A DNA stretch of 64,000 bases from Spirochaetota bacterium (lineage in GTDB: Bacteria; Spirochaetota; Brachyspiria; Brachyspirales; JACRPF01): the NCBI GenBank assembly GCA_038043445.1, contig JBBTBY010000027.1, positions 56,153 to 120,152 on the forward strand, written 5' to 3'. The notes under the pieces were generated by a model. That model had not been told where the DNA came from. It ran no database searches and was given only the letters and a program-made list of their open reading frames with translations. The position numbers were made by a program, and so were the translations under genes. Below, piece by piece: positions 4,093 to 63,945 of this stretch; within the stretch, counting starts at the first letter, position 1; each line of letters begins with the position of its first letter.

Positions 4093-5079
4093 TCACGAGC
4101 CGAGCGAGTCGATAAGCTCTTTCTGCGTGAGCGTCGCCGTTCCGCGTTTGCCTACGACGACACCCGCCGCGTAGTTCGCGATGAACGCTGCGTCGAGGAA
4201 CGAGAGCTTCGCCGCAAGCCCCATGGCGAGCGCAGCAATGACGGTATCGCCCGCGCCGGAAACATCGTACACCGCTTTTGCTTTTGTCGGGATGAAGAAC
4301 GGTGTCTTCCCTTTTATCTCATCGGAGAATATCGCCATGCCCTGCGGTCCGAGCGTTATCATGAGATGCGGCATGTCAAGTGAATCCTTGATGTGCCATC
4401 CAAGTTTTGCGATCGCTTCCTTCGATGATACATCGATCTCCCGGTGTGCGCCCTCGGATGCTTCCTTGAGATTGGGCGTCATCGAAGTGATGCCGTTGTA
4501 GAGCGGAAAGTGTTTTATCGACGGATCGGCGAGCACGAACTTTTTTTTCTTTTTCGCCGTACGCATGATATGGTCGATGGAATCGCGCGTGATGACGCCC
4601 TTCGCATAATCGGAGATGATGATGCCGTCGTAATCGTCCAGATGCCGGCTTACGTACGCTTCTACCGCCATGCGCGCTTCCGCGCTGACAGGCGACATGT
4701 TCTCATGGTCGATGCGCACCACCTGCTGCGTACCGGCGATGATGCGCGTTTTCGTTATCGTAGGCCGCGCCGTATCGATGATGATGCCGTCCGGCGATAT
4801 TCCCGAGCGCTCCATATCCGAGACGATGTGTTCGGCCTCGCGGTCTTTGCCGATGATGCCGACGAGCCCCGCTTTCCCGCCGAGGGCACGGATATTACGC
4901 GCAACATTTCCTGCGCCGCCGAGAAAGCTCGTTTCGTTCTTCACATGGACGACGGGTACCGGCGCTTCCGGTGAGATGCGAACAACATCGCCGTAGACGA
5001 AACGGTCGAGCATGATATCGCCGATGACGAGGACGGCTGTCTTTGACAGGCGGGGTATCGAGGTGCGGTAATTGCGCAT
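4093..5079 (-). CDS. hldA: D-glycero-beta-D-manno-heptose-7-phosphate kinase (RfaE/HldE domain I, PfkB family)
   Basis: Strong match to HldE kinase domain: 'AVLVIGDIMLDRFVYGDVVRISPEAPVPVV...GGAGNVARNIRALGG' and the C-terminal 'DVSGAGDTVIAALA' PfkB motif. The internal Met start avoids overlap with the upstream gene. Kinase domain only, no adenylyltransferase half. Confidence 0.85.
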   Translation of the reverse strand: MRNYRTSIPRLSKTAVLVIGDIMLDRFVYGDVVRISPEAPVPVVHVKNETSFLGGAGNVARNIRALGGKAGLVGIIGKDREAEHIVSDMERSGISPDGIIIDTARPTITKTRIIAGTQQVVRIDHENMSPVSAEARMAVEAYVSRHLDDYDGIIISDYAKGVITRDSIDHIMRTAKKKKKFVLADPSIKHFPLYNGITSMTPNLKEASEGAHREIDVSSKEAIAKLGWHIKDSLDMPHLMITLGPQGMAIFSDEIKGKTPFFIPTKAKAVYDVSGAGDTVIAALAMGLAAKLSFLDAAFIANYAAGVVVGKRGTATLTQKELIDSLGS

Positions 5080-5086
5080 GGTCTCC

Positions 5087-7210
5087 TCAGCGGGGGGTGA
5101 GATTGACGTTCGAGTACGTCGCACCGGTTATCGATTTAAGGGCTTCGAGTGCAAGCACGCGTACTCCCCATATTTCCTTCGCGTTATAGAGGTATTTCTC
5201 AAGCGGTTTTACCGCGCGGTAATCGCGCAGACGCCCGAGCGCATCGATGACGATCATCTTTTCCTGGTCGTCCTTCGCTGCGGCGAGCAGGGGTTCGAGC
5301 ACGGGGTAGATGCGCGGGTCGTTTATATACCCGATGCCGTCGATGACGGCCGCGCGTTTATCCGGCGGCGAATTGAGCAGGTTCGTGAGGATGGCGATAT
5401 CAAGGTCGGGTACATCGGCCAAGCGCCCTATCCAGCGTGTTGCGTGATAGATATCCTCGTGGTCGTAGTAGAATTCGAACGCCTTGACGGCGAAGGTACT
5501 GTCCGGGGTACCCATACGGAACGCGTGTATGAGCGCTTTGTCGGCCCGTTCAATGGCATTAGTGACAGAAGGAGAGAGCGTCGCCCGCCGGTCATCGGCA
5601 ACGGATTCAAGACGCAGATACGCGCGTGAAAGGTCGGCGTACGCGCGGGACGCAATACCCGAACGGCCGCCCAACAGTACCGTATCGATGAAGGACCGCA
5701 GAGGATTCTCCTTCTTTTTCTGGGGCATCAATGGCGGGGGGGCCGGCTGCGAGACCGGAGGCGGGACGGGGCGTTTCTGCTCCCGCATTTTCGGCGTCGG
5801 AAAGGGTATCGCGGTCAAGAAATTCTCGACATAGAAATGCAGTGCCGCTTTATCGGTCAGGGTCCGGATGAGCCCCTCTGCAGCGCGCGCTGCGGTTTCC
5901 GAGCGGACGTCCTCCGGTATGCGATCTGAGACCGCGTCGAAGGAGAGGACGTATGCCCCGCGAAGCGGGACGGCTATGGTCGCACCGCGCGGGTCGATAT
6001 ATCGTTCGCGCTTTTTTGCTTCATAGAAATCCCTGAGCGCCGCAGGGCCGACATCGGCGGACATGCGGGCATTGCTCGCTACGGAGGCGATGAGCGTATC
6101 CGCGAGCACACGGTCATGGATGGCGTATCGTTCATGCCGCACCGACGGATGATTATCTATCCAAAGACCGGCATAATGGCGCATGATGACGGCACGTGAT
6201 ACTTCCTGCTCGATGAGCGCGCACTGCATTATCCAATTGGTCGAAGCGGCCTGGTATTCCATCTTCTGCATATCCGTTGCGTTCTCCGGAGGACGTACGG
6301 ATGAAAGAAGAGCGATGAATTCGCCGTAGGTGAACGTGTAGTCACGGTACTGCGCGAGTACCGCGTTCGAAGCCGGCGATGAAGCGAGGATGCCGTATGA
6401 GCGGCGTATGTCGTTCGCGCGGATGAGGCGCTGTTCCTGCGACCGTATCATCCAGCCGATCTTCTGCGCACGGTATTGCTCTCGTCCGTAGCTGTCGTTC
6501 TTTATCGATTGAAGGACCTTCGGGTCACGCTTCTGCTTTCCATACAGTATGAGCGCCATGTAGCCGAACGAGGCATCGATGAGGCGTATCTCTCCTTCTT
6601 TCATCGATGCGATCATCGGGGCGATCTCGGGGTCGAAGCTGTAATAATCGCGCGTTTCGACCATCGGGAATATGCGCCAGTCAGCGGGAAGGGGGCCGGC
6701 AGCGCCGATGTTCGATACGCCGTGCGCGCGCATGTTCGATATTAACGTCAGCATCCCGCGCTTGGCCTTCGCCCGCATATCCGCCGGGAGATAGAACGCG
6801 ACGGGCGCGAAAACGGCGCCGGTGGAATAGCCGACAGCAAGACGGTCGAAGTCCGATCCGGTGAGCCTGACACGGGGCGTTACGATCGCTGACTGATAGA
6901 CCGAACGTTTGAGCGATCCGATCTCCCTGATAAGGGCGTTCCTGAACTGAGGCGACTTGTCGATGCCGCGCGCTTGTGCCTCTTTCACCATGAGCCGCCG
7001 TTCGACGAGCATGCGTATCTCGTTCTTCTGCGCTTCCATATTGCCGACGATGGAGGCTTGACGGGACTCATCGTACGTACGCATCGCTTCCTTGAGGTCG
7101 CTCCTGCGTATCTCGCCGCCATGATATGCCGCTACCGGATTGCGGTCGCTGCAGCCGGTCATGATGAGGGACAGGGTAAGGAGCGCCAGCGGTATCGTCA
7201 TGGTTTTCAT
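5087..7210 (-). CDS. Lipoprotein with SurA-N/PpiC-like region and C-terminal HEAT repeats
   Basis: 707 aa. Lipobox 'LIMTGCSD'. N-terminal chaperone-like region. Pro-rich linker 'PVPPPVSQPAPPPLMP'. C-terminal HEAT-like repeats ('DPRIYPVLEPLLAAAKDDQEKMIVIDALGRL...'). Confidence 0.5.
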   Translation of the reverse strand: MKTMTIPLALLTLSLIMTGCSDRNPVAAYHGGEIRRSDLKEAMRTYDESRQASIVGNMEAQKNEIRMLVERRLMVKEAQARGIDKSPQFRNALIREIGSLKRSVYQSAIVTPRVRLTGSDFDRLAVGYSTGAVFAPVAFYLPADMRAKAKRGMLTLISNMRAHGVSNIGAAGPLPADWRIFPMVETRDYYSFDPEIAPMIASMKEGEIRLIDASFGYMALILYGKQKRDPKVLQSIKNDSYGREQYRAQKIGWMIRSQEQRLIRANDIRRSYGILASSPASNAVLAQYRDYTFTYGEFIALLSSVRPPENATDMQKMEYQAASTNWIMQCALIEQEVSRAVIMRHYAGLWIDNHPSVRHERYAIHDRVLADTLIASVASNARMSADVGPAALRDFYEAKKRERYIDPRGATIAVPLRGAYVLSFDAVSDRIPEDVRSETAARAAEGLIRTLTDKAALHFYVENFLTAIPFPTPKMREQKRPVPPPVSQPAPPPLMPQKKKENPLRSFIDTVLLGGRSGIASRAYADLSRAYLRLESVADDRRATLSPSVTNAIERADKALIHAFRMGTPDSTFAVKAFEFYYDHEDIYHATRWIGRLADVPDLDIAILTNLLNSPPDKRAAVIDGIGYINDPRIYPVLEPLLAAAKDDQEKMIVIDALGRLRDYRAVKPLEKYLYNAKEIWGVRVLALEALKSITGATYSNVNLTPR

Positions 7211-60131: not shown

Positions 60132-60443
60132 ATGCATCTGATACAGATCCTTCTTCCGTTGTACGACAACGCGAGGAGAAAATTCCCGCACAGGGAATAT
60201 GCACAGGTCGCCAACGATCTTGCAGAGCGCTTCGGCGGAATTACGACCTATCGCCGCTCCCCCGCTGCGGGGCTTTGGAAAGAGACGCCGTCGATGTCCA
60301 CCATACATGACGATATAGTTATCTATGAGGTGATGACCGAGACCGTTGATACGGCATGGTGGCAGGAGTACAGAAAAGCACTTTCCATCAGGTTCAGGCA
60401 GGGCCTGCTTATTGTCAGGGCAAGCGAGATAACCATTCTATAA
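60132..60443 (+). CDS. Hypothetical protein (103 aa)
   Basis: ORF with no recognised motif; followed by a T7 tract. Confidence 0.3.
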   Translation: MHLIQILLPLYDNARRKFPHREYAQVANDLAERFGGITTYRRSPAAGLWKETPSMSTIHDDIVIYEVMTETVDTAWWQEYRKALSIRFRQGLLIVRASEITIL

Positions 60444-60450
60444 CACATAT

Positions 60451-60654
60451 CTATCTCAGCGCGGGGTGGCGTTTTTTTCTGCGCCTGTCCTTCGGGTTCA
60501 TATAATCTTTTAACGCTTCATTTACCACCCAATCGAACGATCGTCTGTTCGCCGCCGCCTCGAGCACTATCCGTTCCTTCATGTCCGCGGAGACCTGTAT
60601 ACTGCACGTTATCGGAGCGGTTTCGTCAGAAGTGTATCGTGCTTTCGATCTCAT
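60451..60654 (-). CDS. Ribbon-helix-helix (CopG/Arc-like) small DNA-binding protein
   Basis: 'ITCSIQVSADMKERIVLEAAANRRSFDWVVNEALKDYM' shows a beta-alpha-alpha RHH pattern. Confidence 0.45.
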   Translation of the reverse strand: MRSKARYTSDETAPITCSIQVSADMKERIVLEAAANRRSFDWVVNEALKDYMNPKDRRRKKRHPALR

Positions 60655-60699
60655 ATCGTGCTCCGTGCCGTTGACGCCGGGGGTCAGCGGGGTTTCGTA

Positions 60700-61356
60700 T
60701 CATTCCTCTCCGATGCCTGCTGTCTGTTCGGTGAATGCGCATTGTTCATTCATCGCTTCGCGGAGCACTCGTTTGATGTTCCAGAACAGCTGCTTCGTTT
60801 TTCCACGAGGGAGACTGTTCGCTGCGGCGACTGGATCGAGCTCTGTCTGTACCAATATCGCTTTTGCGTATCGTGAGCCGATGCCGGCGATGATGTTCTC
60901 CTTGACGAGAAAGTCATGTATCGTGGATGTCGCTGTCCTCAGGCGCCGGCGGAACATTGCGGTGTTGAATCGCTTGGTGAGCGGGTCGACGCCGATGTCA
61001 GGCAGCGGCGTTTCATCTTTGTTCACATAGAGGATGCGCGGCGCGCGGCTTTTTTCCGCCAGGTACAACAGAGATCGTGATGTCCTATACGTGATGCGCG
61101 CATCGGGGATGGCGAGTGGTTGAGGACTGAAATAGATGCGTGTGTGCGCCGAGGGAAGTACAATGAGGGCATCGCGCGAGAGCTGCAGATAGACCGCTTT
61201 CCCGTAGCGGGAGATATCGATGATCTTCTGTCCCCGCACACGAGCGGCATTCTCGCCGATAAGCGGATCGTGTACGATAACATCCTCGATATAGGCGTTC
61301 AATATCTCGCCGGCAAAACGCTCGGCGAGCTGCTGGGCTTCAGGCAGCTCGGGCAT
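60700..61356 (-). CDS. Fpg/Nei-family DNA glycosylase lacking the C-terminal zinc finger
   Basis: Starts 'MPELPEAQ' (catalytic Pro2, Glu3). H2TH region 'IHDFLVKENIIAGIGSRYAKAILVQTELDP' matches Fpg '[30 protein letters not shown]'. Ends ~50 aa early with no CxxC...CxxC. Confidence 0.65.
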   Translation of the reverse strand: MPELPEAQQLAERFAGEILNAYIEDVIVHDPLIGENAARVRGQKIIDISRYGKAVYLQLSRDALIVLPSAHTRIYFSPQPLAIPDARITYRTSRSLLYLAEKSRAPRILYVNKDETPLPDIGVDPLTKRFNTAMFRRRLRTATSTIHDFLVKENIIAGIGSRYAKAILVQTELDPVAAANSLPRGKTKQLFWNIKRVLREAMNEQCAFTEQTAGIGEE

Positions 61357-61366
61357 ACATGCCTCC

Positions 61367-62125
61367 TTACACCTGTGCATCGGAAGAATTCGTTTTTCCA
61401 TCCTCGGGTTTCGGCCTGCCGGGAATATCCGTGTCCCTGCCGAACGAGATCGAATCTGAAGAAAAGCGTTCGTGACGTACGTGTGAGAACCGGCCGCTGT
61501 CGCCGGAAGATGCGATCACTGCATGCGCGGTATCCGTTTCGTAAAACGCATCGATGGGGATCCAGTCGTCGTCACGGCTGTCTGAGAAGGACGCGCGGGC
61601 GGTGTGTATCACCCGGGAGCGCGCGAGCACGATAAAGGTGCCGTTCGCGGCATGAAATCCGAGCTCCCCGAAAAAATAATTATCCGGCATGCCGAGCATG
61701 ATATACCAGCTGCCGTAGTGGCAGGCGATCTCGATATCCGCATGGATGAATTTCAGATCTTGATTGCCGCTGTCGAGAAGCCGATACATGTGTATGTGCA
61801 GCTGCTGCGCATCGGTGGCATGCCGCGATCGGTCCTCATCGGAAATATCCCAGTAGGCAAAACACCATTCAGGGTCACGTTCCATGAGAGTGAGGCACGT
61901 CTCGTTGTATCGGTCCGGCAACTCCCTCGCGTGGTCGGCAAAATCGCTCACGATGGGCGATACGGAGAGCGCTCCGGCGAACGCGGAGGAAACGACCACG
62001 AGCGGGGGCGGCGGTTGTTCCTTTTCTATCGCAGAGTGCGGCGGTCGTTTTTTGAGAAGAGCCTTATTCTGGGCCGTTGATACAGTGCTCACGGCAGCGG
62101 CCTTCTTTTTTTTCGGCGAGGCCAT
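61367..62125 (-). CDS. DUF4912-domain protein
   Basis: N-terminal Lys/Pro-rich low-complexity region, then 'CLTLMERDPEWCFAYWDIS', which fits the DUF4912 'DPYWLFAYWEI' hallmark. Confidence 0.5.
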   Translation of the reverse strand: MASPKKKKAAAVSTVSTAQNKALLKKRPPHSAIEKEQPPPPLVVVSSAFAGALSVSPIVSDFADHARELPDRYNETCLTLMERDPEWCFAYWDISDEDRSRHATDAQQLHIHMYRLLDSGNQDLKFIHADIEIACHYGSWYIMLGMPDNYFFGELGFHAANGTFIVLARSRVIHTARASFSDSRDDDWIPIDAFYETDTAHAVIASSGDSGRFSHVRHERFSSDSISFGRDTDIPGRPKPEDGKTNSSDAQV

Positions 62126-62307
62126 TACTTCCTCCCGATGAGCGATATGTCGTAGAATGCAGCGAATATCGGCGCAACATCATCGGCACCCCGCTTGATG
62201 TTCAGAAAACATCTGCCGCAGACCATGGAACGCCCCGTGTCGTCGGGGCCGGCATTATATAACCTTGTTACGAAACGCGGGCAATGCTCGCAGAGCGCTG
62301 ATTCCAT
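62125..62307 (-). CDS. Small zinc-ribbon protein (CxxC-x20-CxxC)
   Basis: 60 aa 'MESALCEHCPRFVTRLYNAGPDDTGRSMVCGRCF...'. TAATG-type overlap with the DUF4912 start. Confidence 0.4.
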   Translation of the reverse strand: MESALCEHCPRFVTRLYNAGPDDTGRSMVCGRCFLNIKRGADDVAPIFAAFYDISLIGRK

Positions 62308-62508
62308 GTGAGCTCTCCTGGCGATTATTCTGTCGTCTTCTAAGATATTGAGTTGCAACAAATGTACCAAGGCATACCACGATTAATACGGTGGATATGT
62401 TCCATACAGATATTCAATTAATAACGATGAAATAGTATAGGGAAGCGTTCTTATGGATTCACACATGGTGAAAACCCCTGTTCGATTGCATAACAGTTGT
62501 GCATTGTA

Positions 62509-63945
62509 TCATTGGACATCGAGCGCAATGATGCTTATGTCGTCGTCGAACGTGTCGATGCCACGGAACGCAACGAGGCGTGAGTACAGTTTTTCTATGA
62601 ACACATGGTTGCGGAACGTCGACAGGTTCTGTAATTCCTGCGCGACCACGTTCTCGAATGTGGCTTCCCGATCATCTATTTTCTTTGCCTCGACCAGACC
62701 ATCCGTATACAGGAGCAGCGTGCTGTTCTTGGGCAGTTTTATGCTGACGTTCCGGTAATGCTGTTTTGACCCGATAAGCGAATCGTTGCCGGTGATGGCG
62801 ATCGGCATGCCGGTGTACTCCCTGAGTTCCATTTTTTTTATCTGCTTATCGACAAGGATGAACGGGGGGTTATGCGCCGCGTTGGCGAACACGAGCTCAT
62901 TGCTCGATGGTTGATAGACGCCATAGATGGCCGTCATGAAATTATCCGCGATCTGATTGTAGAGCACTTCGTTGAGATGCATGAGCATGGATGCGGGGTT
63001 GGCGGTATACCGCTGCCCCTCTTTCAGGATGCTTTTCACCATTGAGGTTATGAGCGCTGCCGGTACGCCGTGACCGGATACGTCGCCGATGAATATGCCC
63101 ATCTTGCCTTCGCCTAACGATAGAAAATCGAAAATGTCACCGCCCACTGCTTCCATCGGTTTGTAGAACGTAGCGATGTAGTCCACCGGGCTTTTGTCGG
63201 GGATCAGCTCCTGCTGTATCGTCCGTGCCATGGTAAGCTCTTTCTGTATCTTCAGATCTCGCTTTTTGAGTTCGTCCTTTTCGGCTTCAAGATCCCGCCG
63301 GGTGTCATCGATCATGCGCCGTTGCATGAAGTCGCTCCTGGTGTAGCGCTCCATGTGGTAATTGACGAACATGCCGATGACATTCGCGGAAATGAAGAAG
63401 AAATTATTGTTGATGAACCCGGTCACCAATTCCGGCGACATGAGCATCTTCTGGGAAAAGATCGCCGATGCCTCGTAGGCGATGACGACGGTCCAGCAAA
63501 CGATGATGGCGTAGAGCAGCCTGAGTCGTATCATCGTATAGACCCACATGATGACGAGGAGAAGCCCCGCATAATAGTAAAGCGTGCTTTCTTTTTCCAC
63601 TGCGATCGTTATCATTGCGACAATGCCGAGCCCGGTAACAAGGCTGACGGCGGCTAAGATGAGCTGCATGAACCTTCGATAGATATCGGTGAACGTGAGG
63701 AGGAACACGATGATAAGAACGGGACAGACAATCGCAAAGCGTATCAGCCATATATACTGTATGGAGATGGGGACGATATAGATGTCAAGGACGCCGAACG
63801 ATGCATAGAGGATGATGCCGAGCACCAACGCCACCCGGATGATGTTGAGCGACTTGGCGTAATAATCGGCTGAGAACGCTATTTCAAGTTCGGTCTCGAA
63901 GCAGAGGTTATGACGCTTCAGTTGAGCGCGGATAATTGAAGGCAT
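62509..63945 (-). CDS. Membrane-anchored PP2C-type Ser/Thr phosphatase (SpoIIE/RsbU family, 7TM N-domain)
   Basis: Several N-terminal TM helices, coiled-coil linker, and 'GGDIFDF...GDVSGHGVPAALITSMV' PP2C metal-binding motifs. Confidence 0.7.
   Translation of the reverse strand: MPSIIRAQLKRHNLCFETELEIAFSADYYAKSLNIIRVALVLGIILYASFGVLDIYIVPISIQYIWLIRFAIVCPVLIIVFLLTFTDIYRRFMQLILAAVSLVTGLGIVAMITIAVEKESTLYYYAGLLLVIMWVYTMIRLRLLYAIIVCWTVVIAYEASAIFSQKMLMSPELVTGFINNNFFFISANVIGMFVNYHMERYTRSDFMQRRMIDDTRRDLEAEKDELKKRDLKIQKELTMARTIQQELIPDKSPVDYIATFYKPMEAVGGDIFDFLSLGEGKMGIFIGDVSGHGVPAALITSMVKSILKEGQRYTANPASMLMHLNEVLYNQIADNFMTAIYGVYQPSSNELVFANAAHNPPFILVDKQIKKMELREYTGMPIAITGNDSLIGSKQHYRNVSIKLPKNSTLLLYTDGLVEAKKIDDREATFENVVAQELQNLSTFRNHVFIEKLYSRLVAFRGIDTFDDDISIIALDVQ

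Follow-up and report, generated by a model that had tools for sequence, protein, structure and literature searches.

In every H2TH glycosylase the finger, too, contributes residues to the active site, and reviews treat a finger, zinc or zincless, as common to all Fpg/Nei active sites (PMC9266487). In human NEIL1, Arabidopsis FPG/MMH and mimivirus Nei this 'finger' is a zincless β-hairpin whose Arg is kept in cis (PMC9266487). A glycosylase-fold β-sandwich followed by an H2TH/HhH pair is also found in the NFACT-N and HhH domains of NEMF, RqcH and FbpA, which have no inserted zinc ribbon and usually no N-terminal Pro (Burroughs & Aravind 2014, PMC4075521). Here we describe a locus in a 64-kb stretch of Spirochaetota DNA (the window) at which a gene for an Fpg/Nei-like protein, designated FpgL, follows a DUF4912 gene and a gene encoding a 60-aa zinc-ribbon-like protein. 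FpgL does not look like a recent product of fpg splitting; it appears to belong to a family of C-terminally shortened Fpg/Nei paralogs restricted to Spirochaetota.

The four minus-strand open reading frames described in an earlier note on this DNA were all found as reported. The features of the locus are:

60451..60654, minus strand: putative CopG-type ribbon-helix-helix (RHH) protein, 67 aa, assigned by an L004 homolog and profile matches to CopG structures
60700..61356, minus strand: Fpg/Nei-like protein FpgL, 218 aa, identified by Pfam, NCBIfam and MutM alignments and by a fold match
61367..62125, minus strand: DUF4912 protein, 252 aa, identified by its Pfam DUF4912 match
62125..62307, minus strand: zinc-ribbon-like protein, 60 aa, identified as an open reading frame and from its sequence
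62308..62508, no strand: AT-rich intergenic region (39% GC, from composition) between a SpoIIE-type phosphatase gene and the ribbon gene, presumed to be the promoter region of the four-gene unit

The earlier note had read the cluster as an operon with overlapping start and stop codons. This is true of the ribbon and DUF4912 genes, where the stop and start overlap in TAATG, but not of the other junctions, as the DUF4912 and FpgL genes are 10 nt apart and the FpgL and RHH genes 45 nt apart. Each of the four genes has a Shine-Dalgarno sequence of its own, among them an AGGAG 8 nt 5' of the ribbon gene and a GGAGG 5 nt 5' of the FpgL ATG at 61356. The GC3 of the ribbon gene is 64%, like that of the adjoining genes. 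A simple scan for sigma-70 consensus sites found none convincing 5' of the ribbon gene, and a promoter/terminator scan found no minus-strand terminator between the cluster genes, so the unit is treated as a putative operon. A strain comparison (L052) gave 3 SNPs in 5.2 kb and is uninformative on selection.

FpgL is an Fpg/Nei homolog that ends after the H2TH region and has no zinc finger, as previously proposed. Pfam identifies in it the Fapy_DNA_glyco N-domain (PF01149; 34.4 bits, cut-off 25.5) and, at residues 121–204 of 218, the H2TH domain (PF06831; 52 bits, cut-off 34.7). The protein aligns to positions 1–218 of the 274 in the NCBIfam fpg model and to residues 1–203 of the 266 in Thermus thermophilus MutM (E about 1e-21); since the alignments end at these points, FpgL stops before the lesion-capping loop and the Cys4 zinc finger, and lacks about 55 C-terminal residues. 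It falls well short of the equivalog cut-offs for fpg (78.8 vs 212 bits for PRK01103; 77.6 vs 203.3 bits for TIGR00577) as well as the NCBIfam cut-off for nei (34 vs 252 bits). An AF2 model built from a three-sequence alignment, of low confidence (pLDDT 66) and used only to confirm the MutM fold, matched MutM in Foldseek at E 1e-13. Weak Pfam matches to NFACT_N were seen on the H2TH part of window FpgL (E 0.059) and of Brachyspira FpgL (7e-4).

Window FpgL starts with MPELPE, keeps Pro2, Glu3, Glu6 and Lys53, and includes the RxGK Lys in the form RYGK. The wedge, or void-filling, residues are replaced, both the Met of hLGMxG and the Phe of DPRxFG being Ala, and the H2TH Asn is Ser. In tblastn searches of the 64-kb window, canonical Fpg proteins and their C-terminal 60 residues used as queries revealed no finger remnant in any frame and no second or canonical fpg; a permissive zinc-finger search of the window returned noise only.

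The FpgL family comprises 42 distinct sequences of 212–253 aa from Spirochaetota, of which the members from Brachyspira and other Spirochaetia were added by genome and metagenome scans. It is monophyletic relative to canonical Fpg outgroups, and in an exhaustive profile search members of the FpgL clade, there of 216–253 aa, scored at least 154 bits and canonical Fpg proteins, of about 270 aa, at most 121 bits. All homologs have an equivalent start Met, the clade is marked by the motifs GQKIIDI and (V/Y)DPLTKxFN, and an acidic tail is frequent. No zinc finger is present in any of the 42 sequences, and neither the wedge Met nor the wedge Phe is retained in a single one. Glu3 is universal (42/42), Pro2 is kept in 6 of the 42 and the catalytic Lys in 5; most of the lineages have lost both residues, as has every Brachyspira member (N-terminus MKELPY). 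Loss of the finger, of the lesion-capping loop and of the two intercalating residues, Met and Phe, is probably ancestral in this family.

A Fur gene lies directly upstream of FpgL at six loci (L001/L014, L003, L010, L011, L053 and L054), and the Brachyspira copies are solitary. Our literature search on Fur-mutM operons in spirochetes found nothing relevant. Since most members are solitary or Fur-linked, with no ribbon or DUF4912 gene within 4–5 kb, loss of the finger cannot be put down to gene fission at the window locus. The earlier idea of a canonical Fpg split in two, its finger now encoded upstream, is not supported, given the loss of the finger throughout this mostly ribbon-free family and the disappearance of the wedge and the lesion loop along with it. 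The window arrangement is unlikely to be a 'split Fpg' in any simple sense.

The survey of gene neighbourhoods proposed in the earlier note was positive in one independent genome: genes for the ribbon, DUF4912 and FpgL (the trio) are found together in another Spirochaetota MAG (L013). Order, orientation and tight spacing of the trio are kept between the window and L013, but the flanks differ completely: SpoIIE and RHH genes in the window, an AcrB-like gene and a PfkB kinase gene in L013. Both genomes are groundwater Spirochaetota, and they are the only two in which the trio was seen. The two trio-linked FpgL proteins are sisters (100/100 NJ bootstrap) with 48% identity. Unlike 36 of the 42 family members, both keep Pro2, Glu3, Glu6 and Lys53, and they alone have a Cys four residues after the 'EAM' of the last helix (REAMNEQC and SEAMAYRC). 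The same catalytic residues are also found in Fur-linked FpgL copies, which have no ribbon. At a syntenic locus in another MAG (L004), which includes the closest relative of the window DUF4912 gene, the order is SpoIIE-DUF4912-RHH, and the ribbon and FpgL genes are both absent. These two genes are jointly present or jointly absent at otherwise syntenic loci. DUF4912 genes without FpgL were also found at L005/L006, L007 and L008/L009, and DUF4912 is absent at all fetched FpgL loci outside the trio that retain flanking DNA. A defence-system reading was rejected: no PADLOC model matched any of the four proteins or the adjacent SpoIIE protein at E≤0.01.

The DUF4912 protein matches PF16258 over residues 73–185 with 85 bits (gathering score 29.4, E 6e-24). 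Its core, at about residues 70–180, is an FN3/Ig-like seven-stranded β-sandwich, for which fold searches returned only generic FN3/Ig sandwiches and no functional lead. The N-terminal tail (MASPKKKK...) is Lys-rich and disordered, the C-terminal tail is disordered too, and relatives of the protein show HC2-type Pfam matches and KVSAP repeats. We found almost no literature on DUF4912, and only in the form of passing mentions. The window, L004 and L013 proteins form one clade, the trio pair being about 30–37% identical; the L013 copy lacks the near-invariant LPDRYNET motif and may be decaying. The RHH protein falls below the Pfam RHH_1 cut-off (15.7 vs 20.5 bits), but a two-sequence profile matched the CopG-family structures 6iya and 7etr (E 1.3e-4 and 3.7e-4) over residues 18–67, and the protein ends in a basic C-terminal tail, NPKDRRRKKRHPALR. 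It is 54% identical to the product of the gene 3' of DUF4912 in L004, and the gene is absent from L013. The RHH gene tracks the DUF4912/SpoIIE context, not the trio.

The ribbon has Cys residues at positions 6, 9, 30 and 33, which bears out the C-x2-C-x20-C-x2-C pattern given in the earlier note. Among the 671 ORFs of 50 aa or more in the window, 3 have such a pattern, and one of these is clearly spurious, so the motif alone proves nothing. The gene is taken as real because it has a positional homolog at L013:4129-4350, the only homolog found, in an ORF that is unannotated in that MAG and was recognised by reading ORFs. The two proteins are about 34% identical, and their ungapped alignment runs over 37 residues from Met1; its score of 62 compares with 22±4 for shuffled sequences and 25±6 for sequences shuffled with the Cys fixed (0/5000 in both cases). 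In an index of 5.8 billion proteins the ribbon matched nothing but itself, and a two-sequence HMM found no further copies in the 82 fetched loci outside those of the trio. The ribbon matches no Pfam family above threshold (DUF7573 was seen at E 0.04), and a search for PDB sequence relatives found none. Fur, the usual upstream neighbour of FpgL, also has a CxxC...CxxC pattern; the possibility that the ribbon is a remnant of a Fur gene was rejected, as blastp showed no similarity (best E 0.55, 12 aa) and the window cluster has no adjoining Fur gene.

The canonical Fpg finger has the form CxxC-x16-CxxC; its invariant Arg stands at position -5 relative to the third Cys, and its C-terminal motif is CxxCQ. 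In the ribbon the spacer is 20 residues and CxxCQ is missing. The earlier note had placed an Arg three residues before the third Cys, as in the Fpg finger; the window ribbon has it four residues before, and L013 has Phe there. The zf-FPG_IleRS family (PF06827) gave no Pfam match to the ribbon at E≤1. An hhalign comparison of the ribbon with Fpg fingers reached 33.6% probability in a Cys-driven alignment with a four-residue gap, in which the invariant Arg falls opposite Pro/Lys. The FpgL gene is not next to the ribbon gene, which is translationally coupled to DUF4912. From these comparisons we infer that the ribbon is analogous to the Fpg finger and not its descendant.

The explanation that we favour, with slightly better than even confidence, is that FpgL belongs to an ancestrally truncated Spirochaetota family and that the trio is a DNA-associated module whose three products work together on DNA. 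Members of the family would most likely be DNA-binding proteins derived from the glycosylase fold (β-sandwich and H2TH), not 8-oxoG glycosylases. Because Pro2, Glu3 and Lys53 are kept in the window and L013 proteins, these two may retain Schiff-base chemistry of the AP/dRP-lyase type; unaided base flipping or excision from duplex DNA would not be expected of them. The module would centre on a degenerate Fpg derivative that may still have AP-lyase activity. The DUF4912 protein, with its Lys-rich, histone-H1-like tail, would serve as an adaptor or tether the module to DNA, and the ribbon would be a small partner stabilised by Zn. Such a module would involve a physical complex of the three proteins and binding to DNA. 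Counting against this reading, the trio is known from two genomes of related clades, where its order may be inherited; the L013 DUF4912 protein lacks LPDRYNET; the L004 locus, with the closest DUF4912 relative, has neither a ribbon nor an FpgL gene; and the AF2 model of FpgL is of low confidence.

Several other explanations bear on the same observations. FpgL could act alone, having landed by a ribbon-DUF4912 pair with which it has no functional link. The solitary Brachyspira copies must work alone, DUF4912 and FpgL are each found without the other at many loci, and the trio is known from two genomes only. As the window, L004 and L013 DUF4912 proteins form one clade, a single ancestral arrangement suffices, and the shared order may be inherited synteny between related clades. 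However, order, orientation and spacing have been kept between wholly different flanks in spite of extensive divergence of all three proteins, and the ribbon and FpgL genes come and go together between the window and L004. We consider an absence of any functional link unlikely. That the Fpg-like ORF is merely a decaying fpg fragment with a premature stop is scarcely credible: its missing C-terminus and low equivalog scores would fit, but the 42 intact orthologs and paralogs have a constant length and the shared motifs GQKIIDI and GVDPLTKxFN, no finger remnant follows the gene in any frame, and the gene has a strong Shine-Dalgarno sequence and native GC3.

A functional split, in which the ribbon, perhaps held by DUF4912, docks in trans at the Fpg finger site and restores the phosphate clamp and an active multi-subunit glycosylase/AP lyase, is in keeping with the strict association of the ribbon with the DUF4912-linked FpgL sub-lineage, with the catalytic residues and the shared Cys of the two trio FpgL copies, and with the Fpg zinc finger being structurally a largely autonomous domain (PMC9266487). 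Against it stand the lack of a conserved ribbon Arg, the longer spacer and poor match to Fpg fingers, the coupling of the ribbon to DUF4912 and not to FpgL, and the L004 locus, where ribbon and FpgL are missing. Moreover, Fur-linked FpgL proteins keep the same catalytic residues without a ribbon, and the wedge residues and lesion loop, also absent, are not replaceable by one. The ribbon serving as a finger in trans is possible but unsupported, and the functional split as a whole is improbable. The other option raised earlier, an undescribed complex of the ribbon and DUF4912 with a truncated glycosylase, is plausible, since the trio recurs and the ribbon is confined to trio loci. That both trio FpgL copies keep Pro2, Glu3 and Lys53 suggests that catalysis is still selected, which would fit a real enzyme in need of a finger substitute and speaks against the favoured reading. 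A bolder version, that the trio forms a three-subunit DNA-lesion/AP-site complex with the ribbon replacing the finger by analogy and DUF4912 as DNA tether, and that the wider FpgL family are non-enzymatic sensors of oxidised DNA, is speculative and improbable; if true, the ribbon-DUF4912-FpgL complex would be without precedent as a multi-subunit H2TH glycosylase/lyase.

A monophyletic, conserved family without the finger, and mostly without the catalytic Pro, would be a glycosylase fold reused for another purpose. FpgL proteins, those of Brachyspira included, are labelled in databases as 'formamidopyrimidine-DNA glycosylase' or 'AP lyase', so annotation-based base-excision-repair capacity is probably overstated in these organisms, among them the pathogen genus Brachyspira. 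The Fur-FpgL and ribbon-DUF4912-FpgL contexts offer testable handles on DUF4912 function, and are relevant to whether oxidative-stress regulation and DNA-damage sensing may be linked in spirochetes.

Compared with known systems, FpgL shares with Fpg/MutM and Nei a homologous N-terminal β-sandwich and H2TH domain and, in the window protein, the MPELPE N-terminus and RxGK Lys. It differs from them in being about 55 residues shorter, with neither the lesion-capping loop nor the Cys4 finger with its invariant Arg, in the replacement of the intercalating Met and Phe, and in the change of the H2TH Asn to Ser. NEIL1, Arabidopsis FPG/MMH and mimivirus Nei are likewise Fpg/Nei proteins that work without bound zinc, but FpgL lacks the whole finger segment and is not merely zinc-free. 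The two-domain architecture is common to FpgL and the NFACT-N plus HhH region of NEMF, RqcH and FbpA; FpgL is far nearer to Fpg in sequence, has no coiled-coil, NFACT-R or NFACT-C domains, and has no indicated link to the ribosome or tRNA. The RHH protein resembles CopG-family regulators and antitoxins (6iya, 7etr) over residues 18–67, but it scores under the RHH_1 cut-off and no toxin-like partner is encoded 3' of it in the window. Natural truncation of an Fpg paralog has a precedent in Mycobacterium tuberculosis, whose Fpg2 (Rv0944) lacks the N-terminal catalytic domain and has no glycosylase activity; in FpgL, a conserved family, it is the C-terminal finger region that is missing.

A gene encoding a finger-less Fpg/Nei homolog, here named FpgL, lies in the window within a cluster of four co-oriented minus-strand ORFs, which follows a SpoIIE-type phosphatase gene and an AT-rich spacer (201 nt, 39% GC).

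Gene cluster of the window
62509-63945: SpoIIE-type phosphatase gene, upstream of the cluster (Pfam SpoIIE, E 1e-41)
62125-62307, minus strand: ribbon protein, 60 aa, Cys at 6, 9, 30 and 33 (ORF reading)
61367-62125, minus strand: DUF4912 protein, 252 aa (Pfam, E 6e-24)
60700-61356, minus strand: FpgL, 218 aa (ORF and Pfam domains)
60451-60654, minus strand: basic-tailed protein (candidate RHH), 67 aa (ORF reading)

The cluster is as the earlier note had described it, with minor corrections: of the overlapping start and stop codons claimed for a tight operon, the ribbon/DUF4912 overlap (TAATG) is present, but the remaining gaps are 10 and 45 nt. Each of the four genes has a Shine-Dalgarno sequence and a GC3 of 60-67%, similar to that of its neighbours; that the FpgL ORF is a pseudogene is extremely improbable. 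The window derives from a groundwater Spirochaetota MAG, and a near-identical contig (L052) differs from it by 3 SNPs.

The C-terminal zinc finger is absent from the window FpgL, as had been read from the sequence. Its N-terminal β-sandwich and H2TH Pfam domains were both found, and it spans positions 1-218 of 274 of the fpg model (78.8 bits vs a 212-bit equivalog cut-off). The FpgL clade profile matches T. thermophilus MutM (266 residues) over residues 1-203, and MutM structures were retrieved by the AF2 model of the window protein (low confidence). Canonical Fpg proteins matched the 64-kb window at the FpgL locus only, and a search with their last 60 residues for a finger remnant gave no significant match across it. 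Pro2, Glu3, Glu6 and the RxGK Lys are kept; the H2TH Asn is substituted, and so are the two intercalating wedge residues of canonical Fpg (Met of hLGMxG, Phe of DPRxFG).

An indexed search gave three close relatives of this protein and no more, and an exhaustive profile search added three, followed by a clear score gap (FpgL relatives at least 154 bits, canonical Fpg at most 121 bits). When genomes and metagenomes were scanned for the clade motifs, copies turned up in numerous species of Brachyspira and in other Spirochaetia that are uncultured. Among 42 distinct sequences, 212-253 aa in length, none includes a CxxC...CxxC finger, the Met wedge or the Phe wedge; Pro2 is retained in six, the catalytic Lys in five and Glu3 in all 42, and many members have acidic C-terminal tails. 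The family is monophyletic with respect to canonical outgroups, and finger loss is evidently its ancient, family-wide ancestral state. As judged from these sequences, FpgL is an Fpg/Nei family whose members lack the finger and are mostly degenerate in their catalytic residues; two genomic contexts recur in it.

The commonest conserved context among the Spirochaetota loci is a pairing with a Fur-family gene, which at six loci stands immediately upstream of FpgL, in some cases with an overlap between the two.

Fur-FpgL pairs
L001:5568-6678 (= L014)
L003:45-1020
L010:1876-2985
L011:3226-4414
L053:2-992
L054:19-1051

From this pairing, a connection with the regulation of metal or peroxide stress may be suspected. 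Brachyspira FpgL genes and several others are solitary: the 4-5 kb flanks fetched include neither a Fur nor a DUF4912 gene. Every Brachyspira genome sampled (L017-L040 and L042) encodes an FpgL of about 217 aa (e.g. L038:5001-5654) that starts with MKELPY/N, lacks the catalytic Pro and Lys and the finger, and has an acidic tail (e.g. ...EEEESDGLED). Pipelines name it 'DNA-formamidopyrimidine glycosylase family protein' or 'AP lyase'; this public annotation as a formamidopyrimidine-DNA glycosylase or AP lyase is probably wrong, and would be corrected by the FpgL finding. About 4 kb from the solitary FpgL gene of L012 lies an archaeal-type Ogg (Ogg-HhH) gene (L012:9388-10065), and in that organism, at least, 8-oxoG repair may rest on Ogg instead of Fpg.

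The neighbourhood survey of truncated Fpg homologs that had been proposed found the ribbon-DUF4912-FpgL trio at one further locus, L013 of MAG GCA_016214035.1, flanked differently by an AcrB-like gene on one side and a PfkB kinase gene (other strand) on the other.

Trio of L013
4129-4350: ribbon ORF, 73 aa, first of the trio
4361-4942: DUF4912 gene, second
5001-5708: FpgL gene, third

The ribbon ORF was left uncalled in the assembly, and its exact sequence is absent from a collection of 15 billion proteins. It aligns from Met1 with the window ribbon over 37 residues without gaps and with identical CxxC-x20-CxxC positions, scoring 62, compared with 22±4 after shuffling and 25±6 when the Cys were kept in place (0/5000 each); by this measure the two are homologous. 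A two-sequence HMM found no further ribbon among 82 fetched loci. The window and L013 FpgL proteins are sisters in 100/100 NJ bootstraps, nested among Fur-linked copies. The L013 MAG encodes a second FpgL, which is Fur-linked (L001/L014). On a cut contig, a partial FpgL resembling the Fur-linked type (L055:3-533, 82% identical to L053) comes from groundwater metagenome ERZ1292625, also the source of the window's strain, and therefore the window organism may carry two FpgL paralogs, like GCA_016214035.1.

MAG GCA_016214035.1 includes two more DUF4912 loci without ribbon or FpgL: L007, and L004, which is syntenic with the window (SpoIIE-DUF4912-RHH). A single clade unites the window, L004 and L013 DUF4912 proteins; the L013 protein is its most divergent member and has lost the near-invariant LPDRYNET motif. 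DUF4912 proteins of this group carry Lys/Ala/Pro-rich N-terminal tails (window 61990-62125; L004:4875-5000, where KVSAP is repeated six times in tandem), and the histone-H1-like HC2 Pfam model is matched by two relatives from the Brachyspira group; these features suggest nucleoid association. The 67-aa candidate RHH protein, whose profile matches CopG-family structures, is 54% identical to the product of the gene following DUF4912 in L004. It is absent from L013, and thus travels with the SpoIIE/DUF4912 context and not with the trio. The CopG-like RHH gene of L004 overlaps a co-oriented 107-aa ORF downstream of it (L004:5728-6251), and the two may form a toxin-antitoxin-like pair; the RHH gene of the window (60132-60654) instead faces an unrelated convergent 103-aa ORF (60132-60443) that matched no family. 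Membrane SpoIIE/PP2C phosphatases precede the DUF4912 gene in both (window 62509-63945; L004:1588-4863). In L004 the phosphatase gene is duplicated, with a PilZ gene between the copies; their annotation includes a MASE8 sensor domain, and STAS and HAMP-SpoIIE genes are nearby, which suggests a partner-switching signalling neighbourhood.

The earlier note had proposed, as one hypothesis, a split Fpg, in which the ribbon is the zinc finger supplied in trans. Conservation of the trio in two genomes upholds part of this idea, but the truncation is ancestral to the family and the ribbon shows no specific relation to the finger. By descent the ribbon is almost certainly not the missing finger, because the loss of the finger is older than the module and extends far beyond it, because the ribbon lies upstream with DUF4912 between it and FpgL, and because its spacer is 20 residues and that of the Fpg finger 16. 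The Arg said to be placed as in Fpg is not: it stands at -4 from the third Cys in the window and is Phe in L013, whereas at least 90% of aligned Fpg fingers have it at -5. The ribbon had no Pfam match to zf-FPG_IleRS (DUF7573 alone, sub-threshold), and hhalign against 23 Fpg fingers gave 33.6% probability at 18% identity with a 4-residue gap. The CxxC-x(15-25)-CxxC pattern occurs in 3/671 ORFs of the window that are 50 aa or longer, one of them an out-of-frame ORF within the FpgL gene (61088-61339, minus strand), which shows that CxxC...CxxC alone arises by chance.

Functional replacement of the lost finger by an unrelated ribbon is quite unlikely. The ribbon was found solely with DUF4912-linked FpgL, both copies of which retain the catalytic triad and have in common a Cys, private to them, that follows the final 'EAM' by four residues, but Fur-linked FpgL without a ribbon keeps the same catalytic residues, and no ribbon could stand in for the wedge residues and lesion loop, which are missing as well. 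This Cys (window Cys206, 60739-60741, in REAMNEQC; SEAMAYRC in L013) is in no other FpgL member compared; as it is known from two sequences only, it may be a coincidence or mark a site of contact. Since the trio is conserved in two genomes, a shared function of its genes is plausible; synteny inherited with no functional link seems a less likely account. We lean slightly towards the trio as a DNA-associated module centred on a degenerate derivative of Fpg, one possibly still capable of AP-lyase chemistry. The module, known from the sequences of two genomes, provides a first contextual lead on DUF4912.

According to one review (PMC9266487), a zinc or zincless finger contributes active-site residues, among them an absolutely conserved Arg, in all H2TH glycosylases, and FpgL departs from the known H2TH enzymes for this reason. 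Its closest architectural precedent is the NFACT-N plus HhH module, which is likewise finger-less (PMC4075521).
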